Below are positions 1-15,549 of a stretch of 64,000 nt of DNA, piece by piece (position 1 is the first letter of the stretch; every line of letters starts with the position of its first letter). Where the stretch lies: positions 32,001-96,000 of the forward strand of contig CAVTBU010000004.1 in assembly GCA_963733035.1 (NCBI GenBank). The letters run 5' to 3'. The notes below the pieces were generated by a model. The model saw only the letters and a list, made by a program, of their open reading frames with translations. It made no database searches and was not told the origin of the DNA. Both the position numbers and the translations under genes were made by a program. This DNA comes from Pirellulales bacterium. Lineage in GTDB: Bacteria > Planctomycetota > Planctomycetia > Pirellulales > PALSA-1355.

Positions 1-114
1 AAACGGCTCAAAGCGCAGGCGACGATACGCGATTGCTCAGTTGAGCAGGTTCTCCGCGAGGCGATCACCGCATTCTGCGACCAGGGGAAGGGTGAGCCTA
101 AAGTCAACAAGTAA
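1..114 (+). CDS. 3' end of a small protein, possibly ribbon-helix-helix/CopG-like (partial, runs off window)
   Basis: Frame 1 reads KRLKAQATIRDCSVEQVLREAITAFCDQGKGEPKVNK*; the 'LKxxAxxxxxSVxxVLRxAI' pattern resembles RHH helices. Confidence 0.35.
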   Translation, partial: KRLKAQATIRDCSVEQVLREAITAFCDQGKGEPKVNK

Positions 115-190
115 TGTTCCCGGCATAAAGGAAGCGCGGCGATATCGCCGCTCAACTCGGGCAGTCGCTCAAGCCGTGACTGCTTAGCTC

Positions 191-265
191 GGCTATACTG
201 GCCGTATGAGCGACAAGCCACCTAGCACTGACTTAGTAGCGAAAACGAGATTAAAATGGCATTAA
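191..265 (+). pseudogene. Leaderless-type start (TATACT-N6-ATG) followed by a 19-aa truncated ORF MSDKPPSTDLVAKTRLKWH
   Basis: GGCTATACTGGCCGTATGAGCGA is nearly identical to the start of the gene at 60065 (GGCTATACTGGCAGTATGAGCGA). Confidence 0.4.
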
Positions 266-384
266 GCCGATTGCCGGACAGGACAAACGCGGCCGATTCT
301 ATGAAGTCGAGATCCCGAGCTACTGGTAACAGCGTCGACGCACGATGTTTGAGCTGGCGATGAGCCAGGCGAGCGACGGCGCAG

Positions 385-1467
385 TCAAGCAGATGTGATC
401 TTACGCCGACGCATGGCAAAGACGGTGAGTCCGATAAGCCCCATCACTGCGAGCGCGATGCTGGAGGGCTCGGGGACGGCCAACACGTCGATCGAGAAGG
501 ACAGGCTCTGAGATGTAGCATAGGAGTAGTTCTTCGTGGTTGTTTGCTGGGCAGCAGAAATGCCAAGAAACCTCGACGCCACCACGTTGTTCAGGACCGT
601 CAAATCGGCAGTAATTCCGGGTACGGTTTTGTCCGTGAGAGTTCCGGCCAGTTGAAAGCCGGCCAGCGTGAAGTCATAGACCCCTGGCACCGGTAAATTG
701 ACCATCACGCCGTTGGAGCCTGCCAGCGAAACGGGCACCATGCCCGTGACCGCCGGCATTGTCGCGTGATGGTACATCAGCATGGCACCGATGCTTGATC
801 CAACGTCTACCGTCGAGGTGCCCGTGACCGTCGGCGTGGCACCAGCTGTACCCACGTCGACCAACGGTACGGCGATGCCAACGGCGACGCGTCCTGCTGA
901 GGCGGTGTCGCTGTCGCTGAGCGAGGACCCCAGTGCTCCACTGTTGCTACCGGAAGTTGCGATTGACAAATCCGTATCCAGCACGTTCACCGGAATACTG
1001 AAATTGCTCCCGATAATTGGGTCCAGAAAAACGTCCGCGCCGGCCGTGAACGCCACGCCGGGCGACGTGTCGGAGAAGGTGTTCGACAGCCCGGATTGCT
1101 GAAAGCTGATCGTCGCCATCCCAGGCGCAGCGAGCTGGTCGGGGTGGTCGATCGAGATCCTCGATTTGTGTGACGCTTGGAAGGCTCCCACCGTGGCGAA
1201 CGAAAAACCGGCCGAGAAATTAACGCCCGTCACGGAGGCAACTCCCAGATTGATATTCAGAGGCACCGACTTGCTGGCGTTAAAGCCGGTTGCCGGCGGC
1301 GCCGCGGAGCTGTAGGAGAGCGTCACGTCACTTTGCACCAGCGACCCGACAACTCGATCCGCGCTAGCGACAAGCGACCATTGCGCGGCGATGAAAAGCG
1401 CCAAGAACGTCGCTGGTCTGGATAGTGGCCTCATGCTCGCGAATCTAAAGGTTGACTTATCCATCAT
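385..1467 (-). CDS. PEP-CTERM sorting domain surface protein
   Basis: Signal-peptide-like N-terminus, Ser/Thr/Gly-rich body, C-terminal VPEPSS + TM helix + RRRK; GGAG SD upstream. Confidence 0.9.
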   Translation of the reverse strand: MMDKSTFRFASMRPLSRPATFLALFIAAQWSLVASADRVVGSLVQSDVTLSYSSAAPPATGFNASKSVPLNINLGVASVTGVNFSAGFSFATVGAFQASHKSRISIDHPDQLAAPGMATISFQQSGLSNTFSDTSPGVAFTAGADVFLDPIIGSNFSIPVNVLDTDLSIATSGSNSGALGSSLSDSDTASAGRVAVGIAVPLVDVGTAGATPTVTGTSTVDVGSSIGAMLMYHHATMPAVTGMVPVSLAGSNGVMVNLPVPGVYDFTLAGFQLAGTLTDKTVPGITADLTVLNNVVASRFLGISAAQQTTTKNYSYATSQSLSFSIDVLAVPEPSSIALAVMGLIGLTVFAMRRRKITSA

Positions 1468-2065
1468 ATCTCTCCCTTAAGGAGGCTAGCGCACAGGGCG
1501 CCGCGGTGCGTATTTCGAAACCGTTTGTCTGCGACCTGCTCCGGTCAACAGGCGGGGCACTCCGGCACAAGCCGGAAACTAGAAAGGCCTCCGAAGTTCG
1601 CTCCGCTAAGCGGGAGAACCCAGAAGCCTTGAGTGAAAACCAAGCTAGATTAGCGTCGCCTCTTTGGGCTATGACTCCAGCAAATCAGCCTCGCGAGACA
1701 ATAATGAGAAACGAGTTGCTCGTCGTTCGAAGTACACAACTCTCAAATCGTTGAATTTGAAAACTCAAGACAGCGTCAGCGGTGAGAACCGCTTCGCACC
1801 AGCCCATGCTAGCCGCTAGCTGACGTATTGCAAGTAAATTCTCTGTCAAAAGCCGAGACACGAGTCGGCGAGACACGAACGGGCAACTCCACCCACAGAC
1901 AATAAAGTTGGGCCGCGACGGTTCGCGGTCCGATGGTGGCGACCCGGCCATCAGTGAGAAGGGCCGCTGTCGCTGGGCCACGTTCGGCACCGCCAAAGAA
2001 AAAAGCCAGAGCAGAGTTGGCACCCGTCCTGGCTTTTGGCGTTGTACTGAAACTGAAGTAGTGCA

Positions 2066-2197
2066 CTACGCGGCGGCTTTGCGTCGTCGCCACCACGTTG
2101 CGCCGATGGTTAGCCCGAGCAGGGACCAGACGATCAGGCTGGTGGGGTCTGGGACGGCCGCGCATGCAAAGCCGGGCGCGGTATGCCATCCTGATAA
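2066..2197 (-). pseudogene. Orphan PEP-CTERM C-terminal remnant
   Basis: Minus-strand frame not in the ORF track reads ...AAVPDPTSLIVWSLLGLTIGATWWRRRKAAA*; an in-frame stop lies just upstream and there is no start codon. Confidence 0.75.
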
Positions 2198-2309
2198 TCA
2201 ATGTGACTGATTGCCCAAGGTAGTGCACCACGGCTGAAAACCGGCGTGTTACGCGGTCATGACACGACGTGATCGACTTCAGAGCTCGTCAATAATACGG
2301 GTGGCCTCG

Positions 2310-3744
2310 TCAGTTCCAATCCAGAACACTCCCCACCACCACTTCCTGCGGCTGGTTCAGCATGTCACCAGCCAGGCGGACAGCCATTTCCAATGCATCA
2401 GGGCCGTCATCGTGGTCTCCGTTCGGGAAGTCCCGAAGCTGCTCGACCAATAACCGGGCTCCAGGCGAATCCCCTTTGAACCGTATCCGTCCTTGAGCCA
2501 GATAGGGAGTCAAGCGGCGAATCCGCACGGCCTTGTTCACGCGATTGTCCAGCGTATAGAGCGGGAGCAGAACGTCTCGTTCCCGGCTCAACCGGTTCAA
2601 CTCGTCAGCCAAAAGCTGTTGGAATTGGTTCACCTCGACGCCAAAGCCATCCGGCCGAAACCCGCGCTGAATCTCCAGGGCCGTTTCCCCGATGATCGCC
2701 GTATTGCGGATCGCCAGGTCCGCGTCGACGTACAGCACTCCGTCGCGCCCCAGCATCATCATCGCGAACGCCGAGTAGTCTCCGAACTTCGCATCGGTCC
2801 CCTTGCTGGGATCAAGCGCCACGGTCTTGATCGACCACTCCCTGGGCCATTCGTCGAACCAGACGTGCGGACCAAAGTATTCACTCGGCCATTCGGCTCC
2901 GCCCTCGGCCTGAGGATTCTGCTGGTAGAGTGACTGCCAGTAGTACGCCGTGCGCGCTGATTTGGCAGCCTCCAGTCGTTCGATCGAGTACATCTCCGGC
3001 CAAAGTGCTTCTCCTGGCTCTCTGCCTAGCAAGTCGTGCTCTTCGGCAATGGCTGGGAACTTCACCTGTCGCCAGTTCTGGCCCTTGCGGTGGGCCTGCT
3101 CGAGGATCCGCCCGGTCAGGTCATCTCGATGCCAGCGGGTCTGAATAACGATAACCAGTCCACCAGGTCGCAGACGTGTGGTAGCCACCGACTGCCACCA
3201 TTCCCATTGCCGCTGCCGGGCGCTGGCGCTGCGTGCCTCTTCGTCGTTCTTGATCGGATCGTCGACGATCAAGCAGGTGGGCGCCTTTGCCGGTGATCGG
3301 ACCTCCCACGCCGGCCGTCATCATGCCGCCCCCCAACCCCTCAATCTCCCAGCGGCTGGCGGCCGACGAGCTGCGCGACACACGCACGCCAAACAGCTGA
3401 CCATGCTGGTCCAATAAGTCGCGTGCCTTGCGTCCCCAGCTGGCCGCGAAGTCGGCCTCGTAGCTGGTCAGGATCACGCGTCGGTCGGGATGGACACCCA
3501 GATACCAGGCCGGCAGGTACTTGCTGCACAGTTCGCTCTTGCCATGCTGGGGTGGCATCGACACGACCAGGCCTTCCTGCTTACCGGCAGCCGCCGCATC
3601 GATCGACTGCGCAATGGCTGTATCCAGATAGGCCAAGTGCCGGGCCGGACGCCAAGCTCCCTCAGTCACCAGCTGGGCGAACATCCCCGGGCTGGTCGAG
3701 GCTAAGAGTCGCTCCAGCTGGGCCAATTGCGGGACGCTGTTCAA
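2310..3744 (-). CDS. Phage terminase large subunit 1 (Terminase_6-like ATPase + RNase H-like nuclease), frameshift at ~3272; start approximate
   Basis: Walker A MPPQHGKS and AGVGGPITGKGAHLL in ORF 3121-3954 join IVDDPIKN, IQTRWH, VALDPS, VEVNQFQ and HDDGPDA in ORF 2310-3272. Confidence 0.85.
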
Positions 3745-4246
3745 GGCTGGCGATGAGCGCAACGACTTGTGATCGACGTTCTTCGAAGGTGACGTTGGAA
3801 CGGGCATGGCTGCCGGACTCCATGGAAGCCGGGCGCGAGATCGAGACCAAGCAAGCGCACGACGCGTGGCGATGCACTGATTCACCAGGGCCAGGAAACG
3901 CGGGTCGCCGTACTGATTGCGGATTCGTCTTGCGATTGGGGCGGTTTGAGCCATCGCCCGCCAGGTCTGCCGACTGCTGGGGTTTCTGGGACCGCTCCCA
4001 GGCCTGCCAGGCTTCCTGCTCGATCAGCGCCAGCTTCTGCAGCTCATGTTGCCGGCAGAGGTCAAAATCTCGGACAGCGTCGGCCCGCCACTGTTTTTCA
4101 ATGATCTTGAGATCGCCGCATACGGTGGCCTGGGATACGCCCAGGCGCTCAGCGATCTTCGTCTGCGTGTAGCCCTGGATATGGAGCTGCGCCACTTCCT
4201 TGCGGCGGGATGCCAGCTCGGTCCGTTTACTGGTTTTTTTGATCAA
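3662..4246 (-). CDS. HTH-containing putative terminase small subunit 1, with internal frameshifts (~3925, ~3852, ~3835)
   Basis: AAGGAG SD + TTG start; HTH GYTQTKIAERLGVSQATVCGDL; shares AWERSQKP, NQxGDPRFL and CIAxRRAxLGLD with the 6857-7423 paralog across shifted frames; directly upstream of TerL. Confidence 0.7.
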   Translation of the reverse strand: MIKKTSKRTELASRRKEVAQLHIQGYTQTKIAERLGVSQATVCGDLKIIEKQWRADAVRDFDLCRQHELQKLALIEQEAWQAWERSQKPQQSADLAGDGSNRPNRKTNPQSVRRPAFPGPGESVHRHASCACLVSISRPASMESGSHARSNVTFEERRSQVVALIASLEQRPAIGPAGATLSLDQPGDVRPAGD

Positions 4247-4260
4247 GGTGATCTCCTTGT

Positions 4261-4912
4261 TCAAACAATCTGGGCGAACAGGTTCCCCAAAGCTTCGTCG
4301 TCGTCCACCGCCACATGCAGGTAGCCGCTGGTGATCGTGATATTCGAGTGACCAGCAGCGTCGCGGACCTCGGCCAGCGTGCGGCCACCAGCCAGTGCGT
4401 GGCTCAGGAACGTGTGGCGGCCATGGTGAATCGTAAGCGTGGCCAAACGATTGGGACCCAGCACTTTGCACGCTGTCCGAAAGCGCTTGCGAAGCGTATG
4501 ACGCGATAGAGGCGTCGGTTCATGGCCGGGTCTGAGCGATGCGAGATAGACCGCACTCCGACTTCGCTCCCTGCACAATGCGATGCTTCTTCCAGGCTGC
4601 CAGGTCGGCCAGTGTTCCCGCGTCCCACCACAGCGGAACAATGCGTGGTCGGCCACCCTTGGCCGCCCCGGCCCGAATGCGCAAATGTGGTCGCGGCAGT
4701 TCCGTTCGCACGTCGCCTACCTGCAACTGGGCGATCTCGCTAGCCCTGAGGCCACAGCACGCCGCCAGGCGAAAGAGGACTAGGTTCATGCGGGTATTCG
4801 GCGAACGCGGTGCCTTGCGCGCCAGGTCGGCCAACACGGCCCCGACTTCGCGGCGCGTGAGGATCTTCGTGGGGTCGGCGGTTCGTGATCGGTAGATCGA
4901 CATGGTCTTCAC
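4261..4912 (-). CDS. Tyrosine recombinase, catalytic domain only (~215 aa), frameshift at ~4555
   Basis: CGLRASEI (Arg), AKGGRPR (Lys), HHGRHTF (HxxR), GHSNITITSGY (His, Tyr) split over ORFs 4520-4912 and 4261-4656. Confidence 0.85.
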
Positions 4913-5379
4913 CTTTTTGCGGAGGATTCTGGATTGCTCTTAGCACGGCGCTTGCCGCGTCGCGCTGTCAGTCAGTTACCTCCGTTTGCCACCAAGCTCA
5001 AGCGAGTTCGGACCCAGTTCGCCCATGTTGGGTCCTTCCTCGTAGCACACTTTATGCTTGAACGAGCGCACCCGGTCGCCGGCGAACCCGATACCATAGA
5101 GTCGATATGGCGGCCGGGATTTTGGCGTTTTAGAAGCCTTTGGAGCACCGCTGGCGAATTGCCAAGCGCACTGCGGCCATGTAGCAAACCGTTTCACGCC
5201 AGGCGGTTTTGCCTTGTCCCTTCGGAATTGGTCGAGTTGAAGACCTTTTACCGTTGGCGCACAAGTCGCCCCAAATGACATCTAAGTAGCGGCTACATCG
5301 GGCCTAGATCACGCTAAGTCAGGGCAACTTGGGGCCAATTCGCCAGGAAGTGGCGAATTTCACCGGGCCTACGCCCCAC

Positions 5380-6900
5380 TCAATTCAAGCCAGGCCGCAG
5401 AAGAACAGGCTCGATGTGCATGATGCCGCCGGCCATACCGTATTGAGCGTGTCCCGCCGCGTAGGCGGCCGCATCGATCTGGTCGGACGGTTCTTCCTCG
5501 AGGCCCGTCCAGGCCAGCCATTCCTGTTCCAGGTCGGCCAGCCAGGTGCTGTTGGCACTGGGGAAGAAGATCTGGCCCTGTTCGAGCTTCGTGAGCAACG
5601 GCGTCGCCCGCTCCACCTTGCCCGGCCGGCCGCTCTGGCCACGCATGTACTGCGTGACCGGGTTGACCAGCTCCGCATTGAATTCGCCTCGGAGCTCATG
5701 GTACAGCGGTGGCCCGTGATGCGCGTTTTCCACCAACACCACGCTCGGCCGCCAGTCGCGCAGTGTACGCCGCACGCCAGCCTTCAGCCCGTCCCAGTTG
5801 ACCCGTTCCCGCCACACGTGCCTCAGAAACATGAACTCGTGCTGCGGCCAGTAATCCCAAACCTGGCATACCGACCAACTCGGTGGCTTTCCCTTACGCT
5901 CCTCCGCCTTCTGCTTGCTGGTGCCGGCCGTGTCGATGGTCGCCAGCCGTGTGCATTCGTGCATATTGATCACGGACCCGAGGGATTCCCGGAACTTGTT
6001 GAGGGGGACCAGGATCTCTCCTCGGACATCGTAGTACCGCAGCCAATCCGGACGAATAATCGCGTCCTCGACGACCGACCAGTCCCCCTGCAGTAGACGG
6101 GCCCGCGTCACGGAAGGTAGATGCAACAGGTTCTGGATGTACTGCTCCCGGTCGATGTGGGGATTGTCGGCCAGCAGGGCCGGCACAAACGCCCGGTCGC
6201 GCTGCTGGGGGTCGGCATAAAATACCCGGGGCTGATCGTCACGTAGCGCCTCCAGCGCCTCATCGGTGATAAAACGGCGTTTCACGTAGAAATGCCCGAT
6301 GTTCCCCGGGTTGCTGGCGGCTCGCATCCGCAAAGGGACCTGCATGCCAGTAGGTTTTCGGAGCCGGCTGAACATAAACTCATACGGATTGTCGTCGCCG
6401 ACTCCCAGTCGGAACTCGGTCAATTCGTCCCAGCCAATGTATTGGTACTCGCTGGACGCGTAGCGATAGCGGTCTTCCGGACTGTCGATGTACCCGAACT
6501 GCAGCACCGCCGATGATGGGAAGCGGTAGGTCTTGCTCTGCGCGTTCCAAACGGCATCCGTCCCCCGCAGCCACTGGTGAGCACGGTCCATGATGGCGTT
6601 GGGGAGCGACAACCGGGGATAATCACGGCGCAGAATCAAGGCCGAGTACCCAGGCACATGGACATACTGTAGCGCCGCCATCAAGAGTGCCTCACTCTTG
6701 CCAGGGCCGGCACCGCCTCCGAATAGTGCTTCGCGGCAGTCCAGGTCCAGGAACGCTTGCTGCTTGGGGAACGGCCGATGCGGGCAGTACTGCTCAAGCC
6801 CTGACTTCGCCTGCGGCGCCAGCGGGCTCATCCGCAGCAGCTCTTCATCGCTGAGCTTAGTCAGCCGCCGCCTCAATTCGTCGAAGTCCATCTGCTTCAT
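5380..6900 (-). CDS. Phage terminase large subunit 2 (intact; different subtype from TerL1)
   Basis: PFPKQQAF, FGGGAGPGKS (Walker A), IGWDELTEF (Walker B), RAASNPG (coupling motif), TIDTAG, LVENA and SDQIDA nuclease acidic motifs. Confidence 0.9.
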   Translation of the reverse strand: MKQMDFDELRRRLTKLSDEELLRMSPLAPQAKSGLEQYCPHRPFPKQQAFLDLDCREALFGGGAGPGKSEALLMAALQYVHVPGYSALILRRDYPRLSLPNAIMDRAHQWLRGTDAVWNAQSKTYRFPSSAVLQFGYIDSPEDRYRYASSEYQYIGWDELTEFRLGVGDDNPYEFMFSRLRKPTGMQVPLRMRAASNPGNIGHFYVKRRFITDEALEALRDDQPRVFYADPQQRDRAFVPALLADNPHIDREQYIQNLLHLPSVTRARLLQGDWSVVEDAIIRPDWLRYYDVRGEILVPLNKFRESLGSVINMHECTRLATIDTAGTSKQKAEERKGKPPSWSVCQVWDYWPQHEFMFLRHVWRERVNWDGLKAGVRRTLRDWRPSVVLVENAHHGPPLYHELRGEFNAELVNPVTQYMRGQSGRPGKVERATPLLTKLEQGQIFFPSANSTWLADLEQEWLAWTGLEEEPSDQIDAAAYAAGHAQYGMAGGIMHIEPVLLRPGLN

Positions 6901-7423
6901 CCACCGTGATGACTTGGGATTGCTTGAGCGCCAGAATAATGGCTTCCACATGCTCGTTCCGCTGTTCGGCGGTCAACGGCACGGGTGCCGGCAACACCGG
7001 CTCGACCTGCGCCGGTGCGTCCAGACCCAAGATGGCCCGGCGCGACGCAATGCACTTATGCACCTGCTCGAGGAACCGAGGATCGCCCACCTGGTTCTTG
7101 ATCGTCCGGTCCGCATTCTGGTCGGACTGCGAAGCCTTGACGCGTGCCTGCTGGGATGGCTTTTGGGAGCGTTCCCAGGCGGCCCAGGCTTCTCGCTCGA
7201 GGCGATCGATCTTCTGCAGCTCCATGGTCACCCGGGCGTCGAAGTCCCGGATCGTCGAAGCGCGCCATTGCTGCTGAATCCGCTTGAGGTCGTTGGAAAT
7301 CGTCGATTGGGCAGCCTGCAAGTGCTCGGCGATTGCGCCCTGGGCCCAGCCCTTGAGATACAGGTCGGCCACCTGCTGGCGTCGCTGGGTGACGATGAAT
7401 TGGCGACGCGTGCGCTCACCCAT
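6857..7423 (-). CDS. HTH-containing putative terminase small subunit 2
   Basis: RRQQVADLYLKGWAQGAIAEHLQAAQSTISNDL HTH followed by coiled coil; overlaps the TerL2 start. Confidence 0.75.
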   Translation of the reverse strand: MGERTRRQFIVTQRRQQVADLYLKGWAQGAIAEHLQAAQSTISNDLKRIQQQWRASTIRDFDARVTMELQKIDRLEREAWAAWERSQKPSQQARVKASQSDQNADRTIKNQVGDPRFLEQVHKCIASRRAILGLDAPAQVEPVLPAPVPLTAEQRNEHVEAIILALKQSQVITVDEADGLRRIEAAAD

Positions 7424-7662
7424 GGGATGCCTCGGCCAGGCGTAGAAGTCCTCGCAAGTCAAGCAGGATTTCGTGCATCTCAGAAGCTTAACACAGCCAC
7501 CACGACCGGCCCCGACCGAATGCGCCAGAGTTCCCCGGTCGAGCGCCAAAGCGTGGAATTCTTTTGCCTCCTGGCCAGAACCGCGCTTGATGTTCCCCAC
7601 CCGTCATGGCTGTGTGTGACTGTCCGAGCGGGACATTCCCACACAAACCAGGAGCAAAACCA

Positions 7663-7917
7663 ATGATGAACGCAAACAACGACAACCATGAATCCGGGGC
7701 GGTCGACCAGGAGGCCTTCGAGAAGGTGATCCAGGACAACCTTTCGCCCGAAGGCGTGGCCACGATCATCGCTTTCCTGCAGCCGGCGGCGTTCCACAAA
7801 CCGGCCCATGAAGGAGCGCTGCGCGGCTTGCGACAGGCCGAATGGTTCGCCAACACGCTCACGGAGATGCTGGGCGTCGACGAGCTGAACCGCCTGATGG
7901 AAGAACTGGGGCTGTAA
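7663..7917 (+). CDS. Hypothetical acidic helical protein (84 aa)
   Basis: GGAG SD, coherent helical sequence, first gene of a 2-gene plus-strand unit. Confidence 0.7.
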   Translation: MMNANNDNHESGAVDQEAFEKVIQDNLSPEGVATIIAFLQPAAFHKPAHEGALRGLRQAEWFANTLTEMLGVDELNRLMEELGL

Positions 7918-7934
7918 GTCCAAGGGAGGCCACC

Positions 7935-8561
7935 GTGCGCTACTACCTGCAAAACCTGGCACCCGGCACGAGGTTTCGGGTAGCCGGAATGCCAGAGCTC
8001 ACTGGCATACTGGTCCGCTGCTCCGACTCGAGCGCCGTCGTCCGTGTTGATGGCGGCGTGCGCGATGTCGAGTTTGAATCCGCCGACGGCACCTCGAGGC
8101 GTTTTCGCGCCAATCGTTCCATGACCACTACCTGGGCCCCGGCCACGTTGGTCGAGCCCGTTCCCTTTGATGACGAGGAGATTTCCATGTCGCCCAAGAA
8201 GACCACCAAGAACCCTGCTACGGCCGCGAAGAAGACCAAAAACCCGCAGTCCCGAAAACCGGCTGCGAAAAAGACGGCCCAAGCCACTGCCCCGCCGCAG
8301 AAGCCGAAGGCAGCTCGCAGCGCCAAGCCGACGAAGCTCAGCGCACTGGACGCCGCCGCCCAGGTCCTGGCAGCATCGAAGGAACCGCTGAACGCCAAGC
8401 AGATGATCGACGCGATGGCGGCACAGGGCCTGTGGACAAGTCCTGGCGGAAAGACGCCGCACGCCACGCTCTACAGCGCCATCCTGCGTGAGATCGGGAC
8501 GAAGGGCAAAGAAGCCCGCTTCAAGAAAACCGAACGCGGGCACTTCGCCGCGAACGCCTAG
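7935..8561 (+). CDS. HARE-HTH (HB1/ASXL-type) winged-helix protein with Lys/Ala-rich linker
   Basis: GGGAGG SD + GTG; C-terminal KLSALDAAAQVL...MIDAMAAQGLWTSPGGKTPHATLYSAILREI...RFKKTERGHF. Confidence 0.8.
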   Translation: MRYYLQNLAPGTRFRVAGMPELTGILVRCSDSSAVVRVDGGVRDVEFESADGTSRRFRANRSMTTTWAPATLVEPVPFDDEEISMSPKKTTKNPATAAKKTKNPQSRKPAAKKTAQATAPPQKPKAARSAKPTKLSALDAAAQVLAASKEPLNAKQMIDAMAAQGLWTSPGGKTPHATLYSAILREIGTKGKEARFKKTERGHFAANA

Positions 8562-8583
8562 CCTTTGCACCAGGGCCCGCCCC

Positions 8584-8619
8584 AACGCCTCGCGTTCGCC
8601 ACGTCGGGGCGTTTTCTTG
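8584..8619 (+). terminator. Probable intrinsic terminator between convergent genes
   Basis: AACGCCTCG...CGGGGCGTT stem followed by TTCTT. Confidence 0.5.
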
Positions 8620-8677
8620 TGGGTGGCCCCAACGGCTAGCTGAGGCCATCGTTTGCCACACGGACCAAACGTCGCGT

Positions 8678-9985
8678 TCACTTGGCCACCTCCGAGAGCC
8701 GCTCGGCCTTTTGGCCAGTGAACTTCTCCCACCGCTCGACGATCACGTCACAATAGAGCGGATCGAGTTCCATCAGGTACGCATGCCGGCCGGTTTGTTC
8801 TGCGGCAATCAGCGTCGACCCGCTGCCGCCAAACAGGTCGAGCACGTTCTCGCCCGGGCGTGACGAGTACTGCATCGCGCGAATGGCAAGCTCGACCGGT
8901 TTCTCGGTTAAATGCACCATCGACTGCGGGTTGATCTTCTTCACGCTCCACACGTCGACGGCGTTGTTCGGGCCGAGCCATTGGTGTGCCGCGCCTTCGC
9001 GCCAGCCATAGAAGCACCACTCGTGGTTGCCCATGAAATCCTTGCGGGTCAGCACGGGGTGCTCCTTGACCCAGATGATCGCCTGCGAGAAGTACAGCTC
9101 GCAGGCCTTCAGCACCGGCGGGTAGTTGGCACAGTTCGCATAGCCGCCCCAGATGTAGAACGCACGGCCGGGCTCAAGCACGCGGGCGATGTTACCGAAC
9201 CAGGCGGTCAGCAGTTGGTCGAAAGCCTCGTCCGAGACAAAGTCGTTCGCCAGCGGCCGGTCTTTCGCCCGGAGCTTCTTGCCAGTCGGTTTGGACTTCT
9301 CCGGATGCCGAGCCAGGTCGAGCGACTGGTGGTGCTTCGGACCGGCGAACGAACTCAGGCCGGCGGCGATGGCGTTGTTGCTGCGTGGCTCGACTTTGAC
9401 GTTATACGGCGGGTCGGTATTGACCAGGTGAATCTTGGACCCATCGAGCAGGCGGTCCAAGTCCTCGGCCTTGCTCGAGTCGCCACACAGGAGCCGGTGG
9501 TTCCCCAGGATCCACAGGTCGCCCGAATGCGTCGTGGCCTCGTCGGGAGGTGCAGGCACGTCATCCGGGTCGCACTGGCCTTCTTTGAGATCGGGATTGA
9601 GTATCTTGATCAGCTCGTCCTGATCGAATCCAAGTAGCGCCAAATCGAACTCCATCTCCTCCAAAGCGGCCAGTTCGATCGGCAGAAGCTCGAAGTCCCA
9701 CTCGGCGAGCTGGGCGGTCTGATTGTCGGCAATGCGGTACGCCCGGATCTGAGCTTCTGATAAATCCGTCGCGACGTGCACTGGTACTTGTTCGAGGCCC
9801 AATTTACAGGCCGCCTTCCAGCGGGTGTGCCCCACAATGATCACGCCGGCCTCATCGACCACGATCGGCTGGCGGAACCCGAACTCGCGCAGCGATGTTG
9901 CCACTGCGTCGACCGCCTCGTCGTTGTGCCTGGGATTGGCTTCGTAGGGCCGGATTTGCGAAACCTTGCGTAATTGGACTTCCAC
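8678..9985 (-). CDS. ParB/Srx N-terminal domain + N4/N6 DNA methyltransferase
   Basis: PYEANPRHN...FGFRQPIVVD...GHTR...AYRIADN (ParB-like); TDPPYN, HLTEKPV, VLDLFGGSGST (beta-class MTase); AAGGGAG SD before GTG at 9985. Confidence 0.92.
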   Translation of the reverse strand: MEVQLRKVSQIRPYEANPRHNDEAVDAVATSLREFGFRQPIVVDEAGVIIVGHTRWKAACKLGLEQVPVHVATDLSEAQIRAYRIADNQTAQLAEWDFELLPIELAALEEMEFDLALLGFDQDELIKILNPDLKEGQCDPDDVPAPPDEATTHSGDLWILGNHRLLCGDSSKAEDLDRLLDGSKIHLVNTDPPYNVKVEPRSNNAIAAGLSSFAGPKHHQSLDLARHPEKSKPTGKKLRAKDRPLANDFVSDEAFDQLLTAWFGNIARVLEPGRAFYIWGGYANCANYPPVLKACELYFSQAIIWVKEHPVLTRKDFMGNHEWCFYGWREGAAHQWLGPNNAVDVWSVKKINPQSMVHLTEKPVELAIRAMQYSSRPGENVLDLFGGSGSTLIAAEQTGRHAYLMELDPLYCDVIVERWEKFTGQKAERLSEVAK

Positions 9986-10033
9986 ATCAGACTCCCTTGA
10001 GGTGCCAACTCTGCTCACTCCAAGGCCGCGGCT

Positions 10034-10133
10034 GGAACCATCGGAACCTTGGAACCACACTTCCGGTTTGTTCACCTATGCGCTGCGCGTAAGGACTTAT
10101 CTGGCTTTCAGGTTCCAAAGTTCCAATCCTTCC
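10034..10133. repeat. Inverted clusters of GGAAC(C) repeats, candidate replication origin
   Basis: GGAACC at 10034, 10043, 10051; GGTTCC/GTTCC/CTTCC at 10111, 10120, 10129; directly downstream of the helicase gene. Confidence 0.6.
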
Positions 10134-10152
10134 GCCCCGCAACGATCGAGCC

Positions 10153-11676
10153 CTAATGCTCATGGCCCACAATCGAAATCCCGTCATACCAGACGCCGTT
10201 GCTCTTTCGGCGATGTATGCCACGACCACACATCACTCCACCGAATGTGCGCTGGCTCATGGCACGCTCGCCGGTTGTCTCACACCATCGGCAATACTCG
10301 CCATAGAGGTCGCTGGCTTTGACCGAAGATTGGGCGCCTTCGACGCAACGGTCTTCAATAAATGCACCGAGAACGTCTTGACTTTCACGATACTCGGAAG
10401 TCGCGTTGGCAATCACCTTCGACTGCCCCAATCCGTCGTTCTGCCATGCCAAGCAGCCCTCGACGAGCCATGCCAGAATGCCGGGATGCTCTGCAGCAAG
10501 ATGATCTCGAAGATGTTTGTCCGCCCGTAAACGCTCTGAGCCCGACTCGCCGCGATCGGGGTCCCAAAATCGCTGCTGAAACGGAATGAGCACTAGACGG
10601 CGCCAAATCCCGTGGTCCGTGCCGTGCACCCGCGGTTTCTGATTGGTCAGCAACAAGAGAGTGTGAGATGGCCGGAACTGCCAAAAATCTTCCCTCATAC
10701 GCCGGGCTTTTAGCGTATCGCCACCGGTGATTTCCTTCACAAATCCCTCTCGAAGTCTTCGGCCGTCATCGGTCTCACTTGCAACGACGAGGCGTTTCCC
10801 ATGCAAATCCGCGAGCTCCGTTGGATGTCGATCGTTCGGACGCGACATGAGCATTTCCGCATTGATTTTGCAAGCAAAGTCCGATCCAAGAACGTCCATA
10901 ATCGTCTCTATAAATAAGCCTTTGCCATTGGATCCGCCTCCATAGAAGATGGGGAGCAAGTGCTCAACGACCGTTCCGGTGAGAGCGTAGCCTAGAAGCC
11001 GCTGTATGAAACCGATTAATTCGCAGTCGTCGTCGAAGATCGTTGACACAGCCCTCGTCCATCGCTCGCAGCTTGCGTCAGGGTCGAATGGCACGGGACA
11101 GATTTTCGTCAGTAGGTCACTTCGATCGTGACGTCGTAGCTTGCCGGCCTGAAGATCTAACGTGCCGTTCAATACATTGAGCAGCGACGGTTGACGATCG
11201 AGTGAGTCGGGCAGAACCGACACTCCGGGCTCACTTTTTGCCAGCGAAAGCATGTTATTGATTCCGCGAGCGCTTGCCGTATGGCGGGCGAAGTTGGTCA
11301 GCCATCTTCCCGTCGTCGAGTCAGCGTCTGGCATTATCACGCCGACCGCCTTCCAGACGTCGCTTGCAACCTGCTTGGCCAGCTGTTCGACCTTTTTCGT
11401 CTCATCGACCTTCCATCGTTTACCGTCCCACACGAGCCACTTGCCCCAGGGTTCGCACCAGCGCACGTTCGTCCCATGCGCTTTACTAAACCGAATAGCG
11501 TTGGCAATATCAGTTCTTCCAGAGGGCAACCTAAGATCGATTGGTTCGGCAATGATCCTGACGTGATCAGGATCGCCGGTCACACTGTGACGCGATCCGT
11601 TTGTCTCAAAGCCGTTAGCCCCGTCGCCCCACGCGGCCTCCTGTGCCAACCTATTGAAATCCATTTCGTCGCTCAT
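10153..11676 (-). CDS. P4-family phage/plasmid primase C-terminal region (D5_N + SF3 helicase + wHTH)
   Basis: TDIANAIRF, WLVWDGKRW, LLNVLNGTLDL, YGGGSNGKG, LHGKRLVVASE, KEITGGD, TNQKP, GIWRRL. Confidence 0.92.
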   Translation of the reverse strand: MSDEMDFNRLAQEAAWGDGANGFETNGSRHSVTGDPDHVRIIAEPIDLRLPSGRTDIANAIRFSKAHGTNVRWCEPWGKWLVWDGKRWKVDETKKVEQLAKQVASDVWKAVGVIMPDADSTTGRWLTNFARHTASARGINNMLSLAKSEPGVSVLPDSLDRQPSLLNVLNGTLDLQAGKLRRHDRSDLLTKICPVPFDPDASCERWTRAVSTIFDDDCELIGFIQRLLGYALTGTVVEHLLPIFYGGGSNGKGLFIETIMDVLGSDFACKINAEMLMSRPNDRHPTELADLHGKRLVVASETDDGRRLREGFVKEITGGDTLKARRMREDFWQFRPSHTLLLLTNQKPRVHGTDHGIWRRLVLIPFQQRFWDPDRGESGSERLRADKHLRDHLAAEHPGILAWLVEGCLAWQNDGLGQSKVIANATSEYRESQDVLGAFIEDRCVEGAQSSVKASDLYGEYCRWCETTGERAMSQRTFGGVMCGRGIHRRKSNGVWYDGISIVGHEH

Positions 11677-12113
11677 CGTGCAACCCTGCGAGTAAGTCTG
11701 ATTCCTTGGCTCAAGGCGTAGCTCTCGATGGCATCGAGGGCGACAGAGAGGCGAGAAAGGCGCAGGACGAGCTTGCTGGCTGTTTCAATTGTTGCCTGCG
11801 AAGCGCCGGTAAGAGCCCTGATTCGCCGCCCCCAGACGTCTACAGTGCAGAATTCCGCGTCGCGAATCTCTTCCGCTCGCTCATTGATAGCGATCTGCGC
11901 CCAGTCAAACGCTTCCGCCACGCCGCCGGGACCCCTTTCGTCGTCGATGCGCACTAAGGCGCGGTATAGCCGCGTGCACAGCCATACTTCCATCGCGTCG
12001 GCTTGCCCAACGTTATCAAGTTCTGGCGTTCTCACTTGTGTAACCTCCTTCGAGGACCTGACCTCTACGACCCGATCCGGAGGGTCACCCACATCCGGCG
12101 TTGTTGAGTCCAA
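11673..12113 (-). CDS. Hypothetical protein
   Basis: ORF between the HTH gene and the helicase with a 4-nt stop/start overlap to the helicase; start uncertain. Confidence 0.55.
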   Translation of the reverse strand: MDSTTPDVGDPPDRVVEVRSSKEVTQVRTPELDNVGQADAMEVWLCTRLYRALVRIDDERGPGGVAEAFDWAQIAINERAEEIRDAEFCTVDVWGRRIRALTGASQATIETASKLVLRLSRLSVALDAIESYALSQGIRLTRRVAR

Positions 12114-12469
12114 TCGACGACCGCCGCAATGGGCTGCAACTGTCGCAGGTGTATCTGTTCGCGTCCCCGCTCAATCTCCGGAAGAAACAGAAGCTCTTCC
12201 TGAATGTCCGGGGCGAGCAGGAGCAGATTCATGATTTGCGTGACCCGAGCTCTGCTGACGTGACCCAGGCGGGCGATTTCGGCGTAGTCCCGAACCTTCC
12301 CAGCGCGGATCAAACCATCGAAGTGAACGGCCAGTGCCATCAAGCGAGCAACTCGAGGAATTCGGCCTGAGGGCGACTCGGTTACCCGCCGTGGCCCCTT
12401 CTGCAAAACCTTCCGACCATGTGCGCATCGCGCCACATGGAACTCACAGTCGACGGTCAGACTGCTCAT
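12065..12469 (-). CDS. HTH protein typically found downstream of DUF2924-type serine recombinases
   Basis: GRIPRVARLMALAVHFDGLIRAGKVRDYAEIARLGHVSRARVTQIMNLLLLAPDIQEELLFL; ATGA overlap with the recombinase stop. Confidence 0.8.
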   Translation of the reverse strand: MSSLTVDCEFHVARCAHGRKVLQKGPRRVTESPSGRIPRVARLMALAVHFDGLIRAGKVRDYAEIARLGHVSRARVTQIMNLLLLAPDIQEELLFLPEIERGREQIHLRQLQPIAAVVDWTQQRRMWVTLRIGS

Positions 12470-14031
12470 GCACTTTGCTCCTGTTTGTCCACGAGGCATT
12501 GCAGGCCCGTTGGATGGAAGGTGATCGACACCTTGCCGGCCACACCGTCGAAGTCGACTCGCTTTACCACCAGTTGGATCAACTGCACCTGCTCGCGCGG
12601 AGTGAGCGCATTCCACACGGGATCGAACTGCGACAGGGCCTTGGCGGCTAGCTGCTCGTCCAATGCCTCTCGGCGAAGATGGTCGAGTTGATCGTCGATT
12701 TCGGCGAGGCGAGCTTCCCCGACGCGGATTCGCTCTAGCAGGTCCGCCAGGCGAGCAACGGCTGGCGAGTCGACGTCTCCCGAAGTCGCTGGCCCCAATA
12801 GGCCACGGCTGTCGGCACTACGGCGCGACAGTTCACGCTCGAGCGCACGCCGTTCCGACTTCAGCTCAGTGGTACGCAATTCCGACTGTCTGCGGGCCTG
12901 CTGCAGCGTTTCAGCAACCAACGTCGGATCGCCGCCCAGGCTCCCAATCTGGTCGACAACCACCTGCTCGATCTGATGCGCGGGCACGGACGGGGATGGA
13001 CAGGCTCCGCGACCGTTCTGCTGACCGTGCTGACAGCGATAATATCGGTATCGCTTTTGGCGATCCTTGGTCGCATACGTGGGCGTCATTAAACAGCCGC
13101 AGGCCACGCACCACACAATCCCTTTGAGCAAAGCGTTCGACTTGTTTCTGGCGGCCGAGCCGCCCCGTTGGCTGTTCCGGGCAAGCTGTTCCTGGGTGCG
13201 CTGCCAAGTTTCCGGGTCCACGATCGCGTCGTGCTGGCCATCGTAGATTTCACGCTTGTACTGCGTTTTGCCGATATACGTGACGTTGGTCAGCAGCCGG
13301 TGCAGACTCGTCTTGGTAAATGCCTTTCCCCCAAGACGGCGGCCATCCTTGGTCGTTGATACCTTGCCTTTCCGGCCTCGCCTAACCAGCTCTTGGACAA
13401 CTGAAATCAGCCCTCCCAATTTCAGGTACAGCCGAAATATCTCCCGGACCAGCTCAGCCTCCGGTGCATTGACCACCAATCGCCTATCCACGACGTCATA
13501 ACCCAACACGGGCCGGCCACCCAGCCAATAGCCCCTCCGTCGTGCCGCGGCCATCTTGTCGCGTGTCCGCTCCGAAATCATTTCCCGTTCAAATTCGGCG
13601 AAGCTGAGCAGCATGTTCAGCATCAGGCGTCCTGACGGCGTGGTCGTGTTGAACGCCTGAGTGACGCTGACAAACATCACGTTGTGCTTCTGGCAAAGAT
13701 CCATCAGCCACAGAAAATCGCGAAGCGACCGGCTAATGCGATCGACCTTGTAGACAACAATGCAGTCGATCTTGCCCCCAATAAGGTCTTCCTTAAGGCT
13801 GCGAAGCCCAGGTCGTTCCATATTGGCGCCGGAATACCCCAGGTCGTCGTAGCGCTTCTCAACGCACTCCCAGCCTTCCTGTCGCTGACTGGCGACGAAC
13901 GCCACGCCCGAGTCTCGTTGGGCTTCAATCGAGGTGTAGCCCTGGTCGGCACCTTCGGATGTGGACTTACGCGTGTAAACCGCGCACCGATAGATGGTTT
14001 TGAACTTCCAATGCTTCGGGTCTGCTTTCAT
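12466..14031 (-). CDS. Large serine recombinase (resolvase + recombinase + zinc-ribbon domains)
   Basis: CAVYTRKS (catalytic Ser), DLGYSGANMERPGL, YKVDRISRS, FAEFEREMISERTRDK, GGRPVLGYD, CxxC...YYRC...C. Confidence 0.95.
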   Translation of the reverse strand: MKADPKHWKFKTIYRCAVYTRKSTSEGADQGYTSIEAQRDSGVAFVASQRQEGWECVEKRYDDLGYSGANMERPGLRSLKEDLIGGKIDCIVVYKVDRISRSLRDFLWLMDLCQKHNVMFVSVTQAFNTTTPSGRLMLNMLLSFAEFEREMISERTRDKMAAARRRGYWLGGRPVLGYDVVDRRLVVNAPEAELVREIFRLYLKLGGLISVVQELVRRGRKGKVSTTKDGRRLGGKAFTKTSLHRLLTNVTYIGKTQYKREIYDGQHDAIVDPETWQRTQEQLARNSQRGGSAARNKSNALLKGIVWCVACGCLMTPTYATKDRQKRYRYYRCQHGQQNGRGACPSPSVPAHQIEQVVVDQIGSLGGDPTLVAETLQQARRQSELRTTELKSERRALERELSRRSADSRGLLGPATSGDVDSPAVARLADLLERIRVGEARLAEIDDQLDHLRREALDEQLAAKALSQFDPVWNALTPREQVQLIQLVVKRVDFDGVAGKVSITFHPTGLQCLVDKQEQSA

Positions 14032-14505
14032 GGCTTACCTCCAGCCAGTCCAAAGAACTGGTAGCCATTGCAGTGCGAACCGGTGATCTTCTTGGCCAAC
14101 CCCGAAAGGGATTTAAAACGCTCGCCTTCGTACTCGAATCCGTCGGTGACGACTTTCACTTGCAGGGTTCGGCCCTTGTAGGTGCGAGTGATGACCGTAC
14201 CTGGTACAGGCAACCGGTGGTCACGGGTTACCACGGCGTGCCTCGGAACTTCCGGTACGGTTCCGTTCTGCTTCGGAGGCGAAAGTCGCAGGTCGGATTC
14301 GCGCCAGTTCGGCGGCTCGCCGCTGTGCACGTTCGGACAGGCCGCCTTCGGCCAGAGCTTGTAGTCGCCACGCGATACGCTTGACTAACCAGTTCTTGTG
14401 GCGAGCCCCCGTCGGTTCGCCAAAGACTTCGGCGTACTTTGAGCGAAGCTCGTCGACCGTCATTTGCTGCAGCTCAATCAGCGTGCTCGCAAGGTGCAAT
14501 GTCAC
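14028..14505 (-). CDS. DUF2924 domain protein, frameshift at ~14302
   Basis: ELRSKYAEVFGE...WLVKRIAWRLQALAEGGLSERA + DLRLSPP...RLPVPGTVITRTYKG...FEYEGERFKSLSGLAKKITGSHCNGYQFFGL. Confidence 0.85.
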
Positions 14506-14711
14506 GGGTCCTCCTTTCTCGGCTCTCGTCGGCCGTTAACCCCATGGACACTGAGCACGGTTTCCGACGAAACCTCAAGGCATGTTTCCGGCTGGCCGCA
14601 ACGAATGTCCGCCGCGTTACAAGATGCAGCCGATTTGCGTTGCAATCGCAGCAATCCTGTCGCCAGGATGTTCGCTAGTTCGGCCCGTCGAGGTTCGACT
14701 TCTGGCGGCAA
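14502..14711 (-). CDS. Small hypothetical protein upstream of DUF2924
   Basis: RRAELANILATGLLRL; GGAGG SD; stop overlaps the DUF2924 start. Confidence 0.6.
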   Translation of the reverse strand: MPPEVEPRRAELANILATGLLRLQRKSAASCNAADIRCGQPETCLEVSSETVLSVHGVNGRREPRKEDP

Positions 14712-15083
14712 AATAAACCTCCTCCCTGATGTCTCTTCGTTACGGTCCGACTCAGCCCGGTCGTCTGATGACAGCCGGAGTGAACACAGCTCAGTCTAGC
14801 GCCCGACTACGAATCGTGGGCGGCCGAATGCGCCAGGTGGGGCCTCGTACGTCAATAGATGGGTTTCTCAGGCACGCCAGGCGCGCTTGCGCAGCAAGAC
14901 GATCTGTTAACTCGTCGCCAAAGTCGGTCAGAGAGTCCGAGAGTTTGCGGGTGTCTCGCGCGGGGTTCGATCGATACCATGAAGGTTACGAGCGGGCCCC
15001 CGAAAGATCTTTTCAAACCCGAGAGAGGACCTAGAGAGACGGCGATTGACAGAAGGTCGGCCGACGTAGCGGGATAAACGCCA

Positions 15084-15117
15084 AACGCCCGCTCACCGGG
15101 GATCGGCGACGGGCGTT
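15084..15117 (-). terminator. Hairpin downstream of tRNA-Asn
   Basis: AACGCCCG...CGGGCGTT inverted repeat, with T-rich sequence following on the minus strand. Confidence 0.4.
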
Positions 15118-15155
15118 AACTCAAATGGAGGCGGGATTTTGCATCCCCTCAAGAG

Positions 15156-15229
<74 letters not shown>

Positions 15230-15245
15230 GTGTGGTAAACGATCT

Positions 15246-15274
15246 AATTTAGTGCGATTTTTGTCATTCGGCAA
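15246..15274 (-). promoter_or_regulatory. Sigma70-like promoter of tRNA-Asn
   Basis: TTGCCG-N17-TAAATT on the minus strand. Confidence 0.5.
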
Positions 15275-15549
15275 GCCGCAATCTTGGCCACGGCCAGCAG
15301 GCCAATAAGTGCCAGTGGTGCGGGTTTTGCCTTTCATGACAGGCGCTTTACGACGGAACAACATGTCCTTGCTCATTTGTTGCCGGCGCCGGGGAAGTTC
15401 CCGTGGTAGGATCTAGAGAAACCTTCCCGATTTGATAGAGTTTCCCGCCGCTAGTTGCTCCTCGCCGAATCGGAACCGGTAGTTTGGAGCTCATTCCAGG
15501 TTTGTAAACTGGGCATCCTCTGCCCTGGTTCGATCCCTAGGACACGCTG

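Follow-up and report, generated by a model that had tools for sequence, protein, structure and literature searches.

The window analysed here, 64,000 nucleotides from a Pirellulales bacterium (G000:C4:32001-96000, where G000 is the window's own genome and C4, C6 and C8 are its contigs), most likely carries, to judge from its gene content and from related loci, one essentially complete integrative element of ~10.2 kb and, directly beyond it, the decaying remains of another member of the same family. The element extends from 14463 to 4261 on the minus strand and is built in the order DUF2924, large serine recombinase (LSR), orf183, orf146, primase-helicase, ParB-methylase, HARE helix-turn-helix (HTH) protein, small terminase subunit (TerS2), large terminase subunit (TerL2), a 37-nt site, and a short tyrosine recombinase (TyrRec). 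Elements with a whole terminase and no detectable capsid genes recur in other genomes, and we regard it as an evenly balanced proposition that the family represents undescribed phage satellites of this planctomycete order, 10-15 kb in size and of the phage-inducible chromosomal island (PICI) type. Below, G-numbers denote the other genomes or records compared, and L-numbers the fetched loci or contigs. The features of the element and of the fragment beyond it, whose genes all lie on the minus strand except for the HARE-HTH gene, are as follows.

14028..14463, minus strand: DUF2924 gene, the first of the element, in two frames (14224-14463 and 14028-14330) that match the Pfam PF11149 profile over positions 10-74 and 75-134, the break falling at ~14270-14330.
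12466..14031, minus strand: LSR of 521 aa, the presumed integrase; Pfam Resolvase, Recombinase and Zn_ribbon_recom, and phrog_95 integrase (E 1.2e-121).
12065..12616, minus strand: orf183, conserved partner downstream of the LSR and possibly a directionality or accessory factor; phrog_14161 (E 3.7e-19).
11673..12113, minus strand: orf146, with no Pfam, PHROG or PADLOC match.
10153..11676, minus strand: D5_N/DUF5906 primase-helicase of 507 aa, the replication module; Pfam D5_N (1.7e-33), DUF5906 and Pox_D5, and phrog_2478 (8.6e-123).
8678..10075, minus strand: ParB_N-N6/N4 DNA methyltransferase (MTase) fusion of 465 aa, a backbone gene of the family; Pfam N6_N4_Mtase and ParB_N.
7842..8561, plus strand: HARE-HTH protein of 239 aa; Pfam HARE-HTH (5.9e-8).
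6857..7423, minus strand: TerS2, 188 aa as called, the longest open reading frame (ORF) extending to 7600; phrog_645 (1.5e-17).
5380..6951, minus strand: TerL2, a 523-aa ORF, 503 aa as called; phrog_979 (4.1e-57).
5379->4913, minus strand: spacer of 467 bp between TerL2 and the short TyrRec.
4999..5035, minus strand: conserved 37-nt site, GGACCC-N14-GGGTCC with GAGGTAACT ~16 nt later, at the start of the conserved site-TyrRec block.
4261..4912, minus strand: short TyrRec of ~217 aa, catalytic domain only, the last gene of the element, in two frames (4520-4912 and 4261-4656) that separately match Pfam Phage_integrase over profile positions 11-73 and 101-169, with the break at ~4560.
3662..4245, minus strand: TerS1, a second HTH small-terminase-like gene, with three frame changes at ~3925, ~3852 and ~3834.
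2310..3687, minus strand: TerL1, a phrog_38 large terminase, with a frame change at ~3270, before the Walker B motif.

The family was found by a DNA search of the class with window positions 1500-5350, followed by a search of the order's proteins for which the intact recombinase orthologue of G450 served as query. An orthologue of the short TyrRec, intact at 209-230 aa, is present in 47 of the 401 genomes of the order, spread over 33 of 187 genera. Stretches of 20 kb were fetched around 20 short-TyrRec genes, together with six loci from the DNA search; ten of the 20 fetched loci (L287, L291-L299) hold a more distant recombinase only, with no recognizable neighbours. The related elements are listed here with their gene order.

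G696 (complete one-contig genome), ~15.5 kb: DUF2924, LSR, orf183, ..., single-stranded DNA-binding protein, RusA, helicase, primase, ParB-MTase, TerS, TerL (494 aa), site, TyrRec.
G784, ~14.6 kb: the order of G696, with primase/polymerase and HARE.
G1011, 9.8 kb: Tyr integrase, helicase-primase, MTase, TerS, TerL, site, TyrRec.
G1007, partial: MTase fragment, TerS, TerL, TyrRec; left side cut by an insertion sequence (IS).
G1065 (IMG/VR provirus), 18.2 kb: inverted LSR arm, MTase, HARE, TerS, TerL (77% identity), site-TyrRec.
L301 (IMG/VR): fragment of a family member.
G962 (L282, G962:C6:~60990-65350), ~4.4 kb: DUF2924, LSR, intact 511-aa TerL of a third lineage, site, TyrRec; without TerS or a replication gene.
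G700, G868 and G803: MTase, (HARE), TerS, TyrRec; without TerL.
G450, ~9.6 kb: tRNA-Val, Int, ..., MTase, 418-aa ORF, site, TyrRec.
G482: MTase, HNH, deoxyribosyltransferase, ..., TyrRec.
G912 and G1054: further variants.

At the integrase end, a DUF2924 homologue stands beside the LSR in G696, G784, G912, G962, G1054, and G1065; the LSRs of G696, G784, G962, G912, and G1065 occupy the same position and are 51-57% identical, and copies of orf183 that are 49-58% identical adjoin the LSR in G696, G784, G912, G1054, and G1065. Towards the other end, the ParB-MTase (70-87% identical) lies one to three genes upstream of the short TyrRec in G696, G700, G450, G482, G784, G1011, G868, G833, G803, G1054, G1065, and L301, and HARE-HTH homologues are encoded between the MTase and the TyrRec in most members, as well as on the metagenome contig L092. 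The slot between these two genes is variable in content: it accommodates TerS plus TerL, TerS alone (G700, G868, G803), TerL alone (G962), HNH (G482), or others. In terminase-less members the slot is filled by a protein of ~320-420 aa, the o418 type (L244 8449-9702, L290 4847-6019, L283 6309-7088, L247 11564-12517), for which neither a PHROG match nor a usable ESM Atlas match was obtained. At least five further genomes or records, drawn from different genera, show this portal-less arrangement ending cleanly in TerL, site, TyrRec, and host genes; it is associated with two kinds of integrase and with three lineages of TerL.

Virion structural genes were sought in the window, in its surroundings, and in the related elements. 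As the preliminary description of this DNA had noted, no portal or capsid gene was found near the terminases: tblastn with 18 head proteins of relatives gave nothing in window positions 1-16000 (all E > 0.2), and no capsid, portal, protease, or connector was detected in the element by Pfam, PHROGs, or tblastn. That description had also allowed for structural genes just left of the window, and a Pfam scan of the 32 kb up to the contig end recovered none; this region contains IS elements, FGE-sulfatase genes, PEP-CTERM proteins, and a kinase. Among 151 ORFs of related loci (68 + 83), the sole 'head and packaging' matches in PHROG were TerL and TerS, and tblastn of these loci with 24 portal, capsid, and tube proteins returned no match, while the same panel did find the portal beside a 50%-identical TerL in the viral contig L361. 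No head or tail genes turned up in the elements of G696, G784, G1011, G1007, and G1065. The G1011 element has just three unassigned ORFs of at least 85 aa (220, 104, and 239 aa) and therefore no room for a portal plus a capsid gene.

The TerL placed directly before the site-TyrRec block belongs to one of three unrelated lineages: the window has phrog_979, four genomes have phrog_38, and G962 has a third. The element TerLs of the phrog_38 type (G696, G784, G1007, G1011) are intact and 65-76% identical to one another; their nonsynonymous and synonymous divergences (dN of 0.18-0.30, dS of at least 1.25 and saturated) correspond to a dN/dS of ~0.1-0.15, which indicates that the element TerLs are under purifying selection. 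In a phylogenetic tree, these four proteins form a clade (support 97/95) apart from the TerLs of viral contigs and chromosomal clusters, and TerL1 of the window is their sister (support 80/91). Profile classification, a tree, and a selection estimate had all been proposed in the preliminary description; the PHROG profiles assign both window TerLs, while Pfam Terminase_6N reaches 18.1 and 17.7 bits on them, under its 22-bit cut-off.

Both TerS-TerL modules described at the outset exist in the window, and every motif quoted for them was found on the minus strand, yet they are unequal: module 2 (TerS2 and TerL2) is intact and forms the packaging end of the element, while module 1 (TerS1 and TerL1) is read by stitching frames together. 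The two HTH genes are indeed paralogous (38.7% identity over 173 aa, E 4.8e-27; both phrog_645), and each overlaps its TerL, TerS2 running into the start of TerL2. The TerLs are, as claimed, of clearly different types, phrog_38 for TerL1 and phrog_979 for TerL2, with no significant BLASTP similarity (best E 1.6). The conservation of ATPase and nuclease residues, attributed to both proteins, holds for TerL2, in which none of the 48 columns that are invariant in 25 relatives has changed, Walker A G84/K85 and E176 among them, and for TerL1 only if it is read across its break. The phrog_979 match of TerL2 spans residues 49-498. A metagenome scan for TerL2 relatives returned short contigs only, the best being L092, which carries HARE, TerS, and a TerL2-type TerL with 74% identity; the proportions of nonsynonymous and synonymous differences between the two TerLs are 0.164 (pN) and 0.749 (pS). 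No close relative of TerL2 was found in IMG/VR.

TerS2 is a putative small terminase. Its Pfam Terminase_5 score, at 20.0 bits, stays below the cut-off of 20.3, and HTH_23 and HTH_38 match as well; 443 homologues were collected, many with a precomputed PF06056 match. The phrog_645 family carries the label 'Rnase E', and members of it precede TerL and portal in the viral contigs L216 and L217. The predicted fold comprises an HTH, a long helix, and a β-hairpin (mean pLDDT 74). Foldseek yielded no match to this fold at E <= 0.001, and VIA-align gave HTH matches plus one long, weak match to the G20c small terminase, which, with Z 7.2 and a root-mean-square deviation of 12 Å, falls within the noise range. 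A search of 400 other phylum-wide genomes, a sample without the carriers found later, disclosed no TerS2 homologue at E <= 1e-8.

The site and recombinase at the packaging end are conserved as a block. The 37-nt site is an imperfect palindrome plus the GAGGTAACT box, nucleotide-conserved across genera, with orthologous sites in L242, L243, L244, and L280-L285; it lies ~120-150 nt upstream of the TyrRec, follows the strict pattern in 10 of the 14 genomes tested, and occurs once in the window, where none is expected by chance. The DNA upstream of it is unrelated between genomes. We regard the site as a candidate recombination or operator site. Rfam gave no match over 4850-5420, and the site, searched as an exact degenerate pattern, had no match in IMG/VR. 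An inverted repeat flanking the TyrRec (4266-4286 / 5010-5030, 17/21) was considered as a family feature and dropped, being at chance level in 10 other genomes. The short TyrRec is often multi-copy or placed at contig starts or ends, as expected of a repeated mobile sequence (e.g., G564:C28:2-574 and C59:2-577, and three copies each in G1051 and G808), and its orientation in G833 (L286) is opposite to that of the ParB-methylase.

Taken together, an integrase, an own replicon, packaging genes, a size of 10-15 kb, and no structural genes make up the architecture from which we infer a satellite lifestyle. The undescribed satellite class suggested in the preliminary description thereby survives in a revised form with a single motor, the portal-less terminase element recurring in G696, G784, G1011, G1007, and G1065. 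In general terms, the life cycle of such an element could be rationalized as follows. Upon induction, the serine recombinase (a tyrosine integrase in some members) would excise the element, which would then be replicated by its own primase-helicase. TerS would recognize a pac site on the element, and the element TerL would cut its DNA and pump it into procapsids supplied by a helper. The short recombinase and the conserved site may resolve multimers or serve a second recombination step.

The integrase of a typical PICI is a tyrosine recombinase; here it is an LSR with a DUF2924 partner, or a tyrosine integrase in some members. The family resembles PICIs and Staphylococcus aureus pathogenicity islands (SaPIs), as portrayed in the source excerpts available, in being a 10-15-kb island that has an integrase at one end and TerS near the other, along with its own primase-replicase, a variable accessory slot, and no virion structural genes. 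It departs from PICIs in that neither a regulator of the AlpA, Stl, or MerR kind nor a gene for capsid morphogenesis was recognized, in that the ParB-methylase and the terminal short TyrRec with its conserved site are part of the backbone, and in its host phylum, Planctomycetota. It also encodes a full TerL, whereas the PICI criterion is TerS without other packaging or morphogenesis genes. In size and gene content the family fits the definition of a phage satellite given in the available portion of PMC10085698, from which the PICI definition is also taken. Capsid-forming PICIs (cfPICIs), as the excerpts describe them, encode TerS and TerL along with capsid, portal, protease, and head-tail adaptor/connector. 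The Streptomyces satellites MulchRoom/MiniFlayer, in the excerpt at hand, likewise encode TerS and TerL together with capsid and portal. The present family shares with both the possession of the two terminase subunits; unlike them, neither the window nor the related elements yielded the capsid, portal, protease/scaffold, or adaptor/connector genes that these excerpts mention. The marine VEIMEs (virion-encapsidated integrative mobile elements)/tycheposons are also small integrative elements with an integrase and a primase-helicase, and some carry TerS or HNH genes, but, according to the part of PMC9618062 consulted, they depend on the large terminase of the helper, whereas the element described here has its own. 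With tailed-phage terminase modules (PHROG 38 and 979 for TerL, PHROG 645 for TerS), the element has the families, the TerS-TerL order, and the overlap in common; in phages a portal comes next, and here a recombination-type site and a short TyrRec.

In the sources as excerpted, known satellites fall into those that borrow the TerL of the helper (PICI, SaPI, VEIME) and those equipped with a whole set of capsid and packaging genes (cfPICI, MulchRoom/MiniFlayer). If the satellite reading is true, a complete motor without a shell would be an intermediate strategy, and it would become testable whether motor-portal compatibility, beyond pac-site recognition, decides what is packaged. It would also give Planctomycetota, in which very few phages have been studied, a first candidate for a satellite. 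A search of the literature, with supplements and subscription journals outside its scope and some sources available in part, found no element of this kind in Planctomycetota. The carriers with complete genomes, G696 and G1011, offer a starting point for experiments, while the message of the window itself is more modest: an element that is apparently complete but has two suspicious breaks of frame, and a single dead fragment.

Several observations weigh against the satellite reading. No helper phage was identified, and the case is built on comparative genomics alone. Some members have no packaging gene at all (G450, G912, G1054), and IMG/VR labels G1065 a provirus with an estimated completeness of 37%. 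Pfam and PHROG recognized no AlpA, Stl, or MerR-type regulator in the window element, sigma-like proteins in G784, G1054, and G696 being the sole regulators seen in the family. In the window's own element, DUF2924 and the TyrRec are both split, and, if the breaks are real, this copy may be immobile. Both window TerLs have relatives in phages: those of TerL2, at 45-55% identity, lie in phage head modules with downstream decoration, capsid, or adaptor genes (L012, L013, L106, L107, L109), and a portal comes after the TerL1 relatives (42-59% identity) in all four viral contigs with downstream sequence, two of which (L216, L217) have the order phrog_645 gene, phrog_38 TerL, portal. The genes are therefore of phage origin, and it is conceivable that a deletion in a common ancestor was inherited by all. 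Furthermore, PHROGs and Pfam missed the presumed portals of L012, L013, L106, L107, and L109, so divergent structural genes could escape annotation.

A rival explanation is ordinary prophage decay, in which two adjacent temperate phages lost everything downstream of TerL, and the look-alikes elsewhere descend from one defective prophage, moved by its recombinase or inherited. Two independently truncated prophages were in fact our first reading, then thought highly probable because TerL2 and TerL1 relatives have downstream head genes or portals and a TerL paralogue of the window genome lies in a head-tail gene cluster; this reading was abandoned once the family of portal-less elements emerged. 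Apart from the phage-type TerLs (phrog_38 and phrog_979) and the portal or capsid genes that follow their relatives at 42-55% identity, decay would account for the broken frames of module 1, the TyrRec, and DUF2924, and for a truncated copy of module 1 beside an IS at C4:1-511. The phrog_38 paralogue, 44-55% identical, sits on C6 in a TerS-TerL-portal-cement-capsid-tube cluster. Orphan TerLs with no recognized portal are frequent in planctomycete assemblies (six of the nine phylum loci examined), and a scan of the downstream ORFs of 20 genome loci showed portal or head genes in 13 and recognized none in the other seven. Cryptic or defective prophages can similarly carry phage-derived integrase, replication, methylase, and terminase genes with no morphogenesis module, as well as broken genes like those of the window. 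What separates the present family from them is a layout conserved across genera, with the same end in at least five other genomes or records, a dedicated end module of site plus short recombinase, and intact TerLs under purifying selection; no portal or capsid remnant is detectable in window positions 1-16000 either. The suggestion that this is simply a deleted prophage is accordingly weakened by the recurrence of the architecture, which argues against a one-off deletion, and retains its point that distant TerL relatives do carry portal and capsid genes. We consider prophage decay rather unlikely.

Another possibility is that TerS and TerL are cargo of an island, used against phages as a decoy or poison terminase that mis-cuts DNA or blocks packaging, or for processing element DNA, e.g., in concatemer resolution, and not for encapsidation of the element itself. 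The variability of the MTase-TyrRec slot, reminiscent of accessory hotspots of satellites and islands, is compatible with this, as are the members with TerL alone or TerS alone, and satellites are known, from sources available in part, to interfere with helper packaging. However, PADLOC matched the element genes with no defence model beyond generic methyltransferase models for the ParB-MTase; it also gave a weak CARF3 HTH match for TerS1 (E 3.5e-4) and TerS2 (E 3.8e-5). In most members the slot holds packaging-themed genes (TerS, TerL, HNH), the order and overlap of TerS and TerL are those of phages, and TerL2 has all the invariant motor and nuclease residues, which makes the cargo explanation quite unlikely.

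The chromosomal cluster mentioned above (C6:~451000-466300, L003) comprises GNAT, TerS (phrog_4102), TerL (phrog_38), a lambda-type portal, cement, capsid, a CBM96 protein, and tail tube. It is collinear in all three genomes of the order examined, G330 (L228), G190 (L229), and G370 (L230), in G330 including upstream host-like genes, and therefore looks vertically inherited, a candidate gene transfer agent (GTA)-like cluster or domesticated prophage of the order. In this assembly its portal is split into two frames near C6:459314-459329. The TerL common among the elements is 37-41% identical to the cluster TerL, with a nearly identical C-terminal segment. There is a slim chance that the elements parasitize this cluster and not an infecting phage, their own TerS and TerL loading element DNA into capsids made by the chromosome; if so, a selfish element would be hijacking a GTA-like particle by bringing its own packaging motor.

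Module 1 occupies 4245->2310 and has no element of its own; it is readable only across four frame changes. TerS1 starts 10-15 nt past the recombinase stop, and its AWERSQKP, NQYGDPRFL/CIATRRA, LLGLD, and C-terminus are in different frames. The TerL1 break falls between GKGAHLL and IVDDP (Walker B); the two pieces match phrog_38 with E values of 3.2e-31 and 1.8e-63 over consecutive profile parts (252-416 and 407-713) and align end to end, collinear with intact relatives, at 63-79% identity to the element TerLs of G696, G784, G1007, and G1011. The recombinase-to-TerS junction is common to the window and G700, in which just a 45-codon TerS stub follows the TyrRec in the same place. The synteny looked for on the strength of the preliminary description was found in G696 and G784 as DUF2924-LSR...ParB-MTase-TerS-TerL-TyrRec; the second TerS-TerL pair after the TyrRec was not, and no other family member has a terminase module beyond the recombinase. 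Because of the four frame changes, the G700 stub, and the lack of a second module in other members, we read module 1 as the decaying remnant of another family member, one with the common phrog_38 type of TerL; in its assembled form it has lost its function.

The TerS1/TerL1 junction is partly duplicated at C4:1-511 (L001), where a copy with 96% identity over 389 nt continues past the start of the contig; it has the insertion at ~3852 and lacks the one at 3834, has lost 85 bp to a deletion, and is truncated on its 5' side. An rve-family transposase gene (IS) adjoins this copy at C4:821-1885. Substitutions between the two copies fall at third codon positions of the locally correct frame in 10 of 14 cases, and those between module 1 and environmental variants in 17 of 21 (hand count), so the TerS1-TerL1 pair was functional until recently. 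Short-read contigs from related samples contain a variant without both inserted bases of TerS1; this read evidence comes from three runs with sparse, low-depth contigs that cover two TerS1 sites and leave the TerL1 and TyrRec sites unresolved.

Part of the frame damage could be consensus or assembly error. Genes are split elsewhere in the assembly, namely three of 37 sulfatase genes (C6:732837-733756, C8:492324-493305, C6:677751-678823), an ABC-F gene in the window (44929-46715), and the portal of the C6 cluster. A TPR/GT41 pair (window 49118-51604) is maybe another. With such a noticeable rate, ~1 per 12-25 kb of monitored coding DNA, the breaks here should not be taken as decay without read support, although five breaks in the 2.6 kb of TyrRec-TerS1-TerL1 are far above it. 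An apparent association of the breaks with GATC sites was not significant, GATC occurring every 155 bp genome-wide. The proposal that a single satellite deliberately carries two packaging motors for two kinds of helper procapsid, which could appeal to adjacent, co-oriented modules with TerLs of different lineages and paralogous TerS genes, to the junction common to G700, to the third-position bias, and to breaks that could be assembly errors, is very improbable given the four frame changes in module 1 as assembled, the 45 codons left in G700, the absence of a second module in other members, and the absence of the tandem from 173 loci fetched around TerL2 relatives.

The surroundings of the element and the fragment contain the following features.

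15155..15229, minus strand: tRNA-Asn, a neighbour of the element, ~690 bp outside its DUF2924 end.
2309->1468, minus strand: 840 bp beyond TerL1 without a convincing gene.
1467->385, minus strand: full-length PEP-CTERM protein, a 360-aa ORF with the motif at residues 330-355, and not the remnant for which it had been taken.

A scan for promoters and terminators over 1400-5450 stayed at chance level. No direct repeat of the tRNA-Asn end and no other long repeat was found flanking the island, nor were att repeats found around the G450 element at its tRNA-Val. For an empty-site comparison, GlgE was not found in three genomes of the same order, and in G810 and G866, which belong to the same genus, conservation was seen on the tRNA-Asn-GlgE side while the other flank is non-syntenic, so the ends of the element cannot be fixed. 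In L291 (G596:C2:98800-118799, same genus), a 56%-identical short recombinase lies ~2.4 kb from tRNA-Asn, so that the vicinity of tRNA-Asn may be a spot where such elements land repeatedly in the genus.

Another recurrent context of orphan TerLs was seen on contigs of Pirellulaceae and Blastopirellula metagenome-assembled genomes, L015 (1655-4371), L027 (8145-11460), and L014. Here, the gene ahead of a TerL with 43-45% identity to TerL2 encodes a P-loop ATPase-GNAT fusion (phrog_11143), and host-like leucine-rich repeat or other genes come after the TerL, with no portal recognized.

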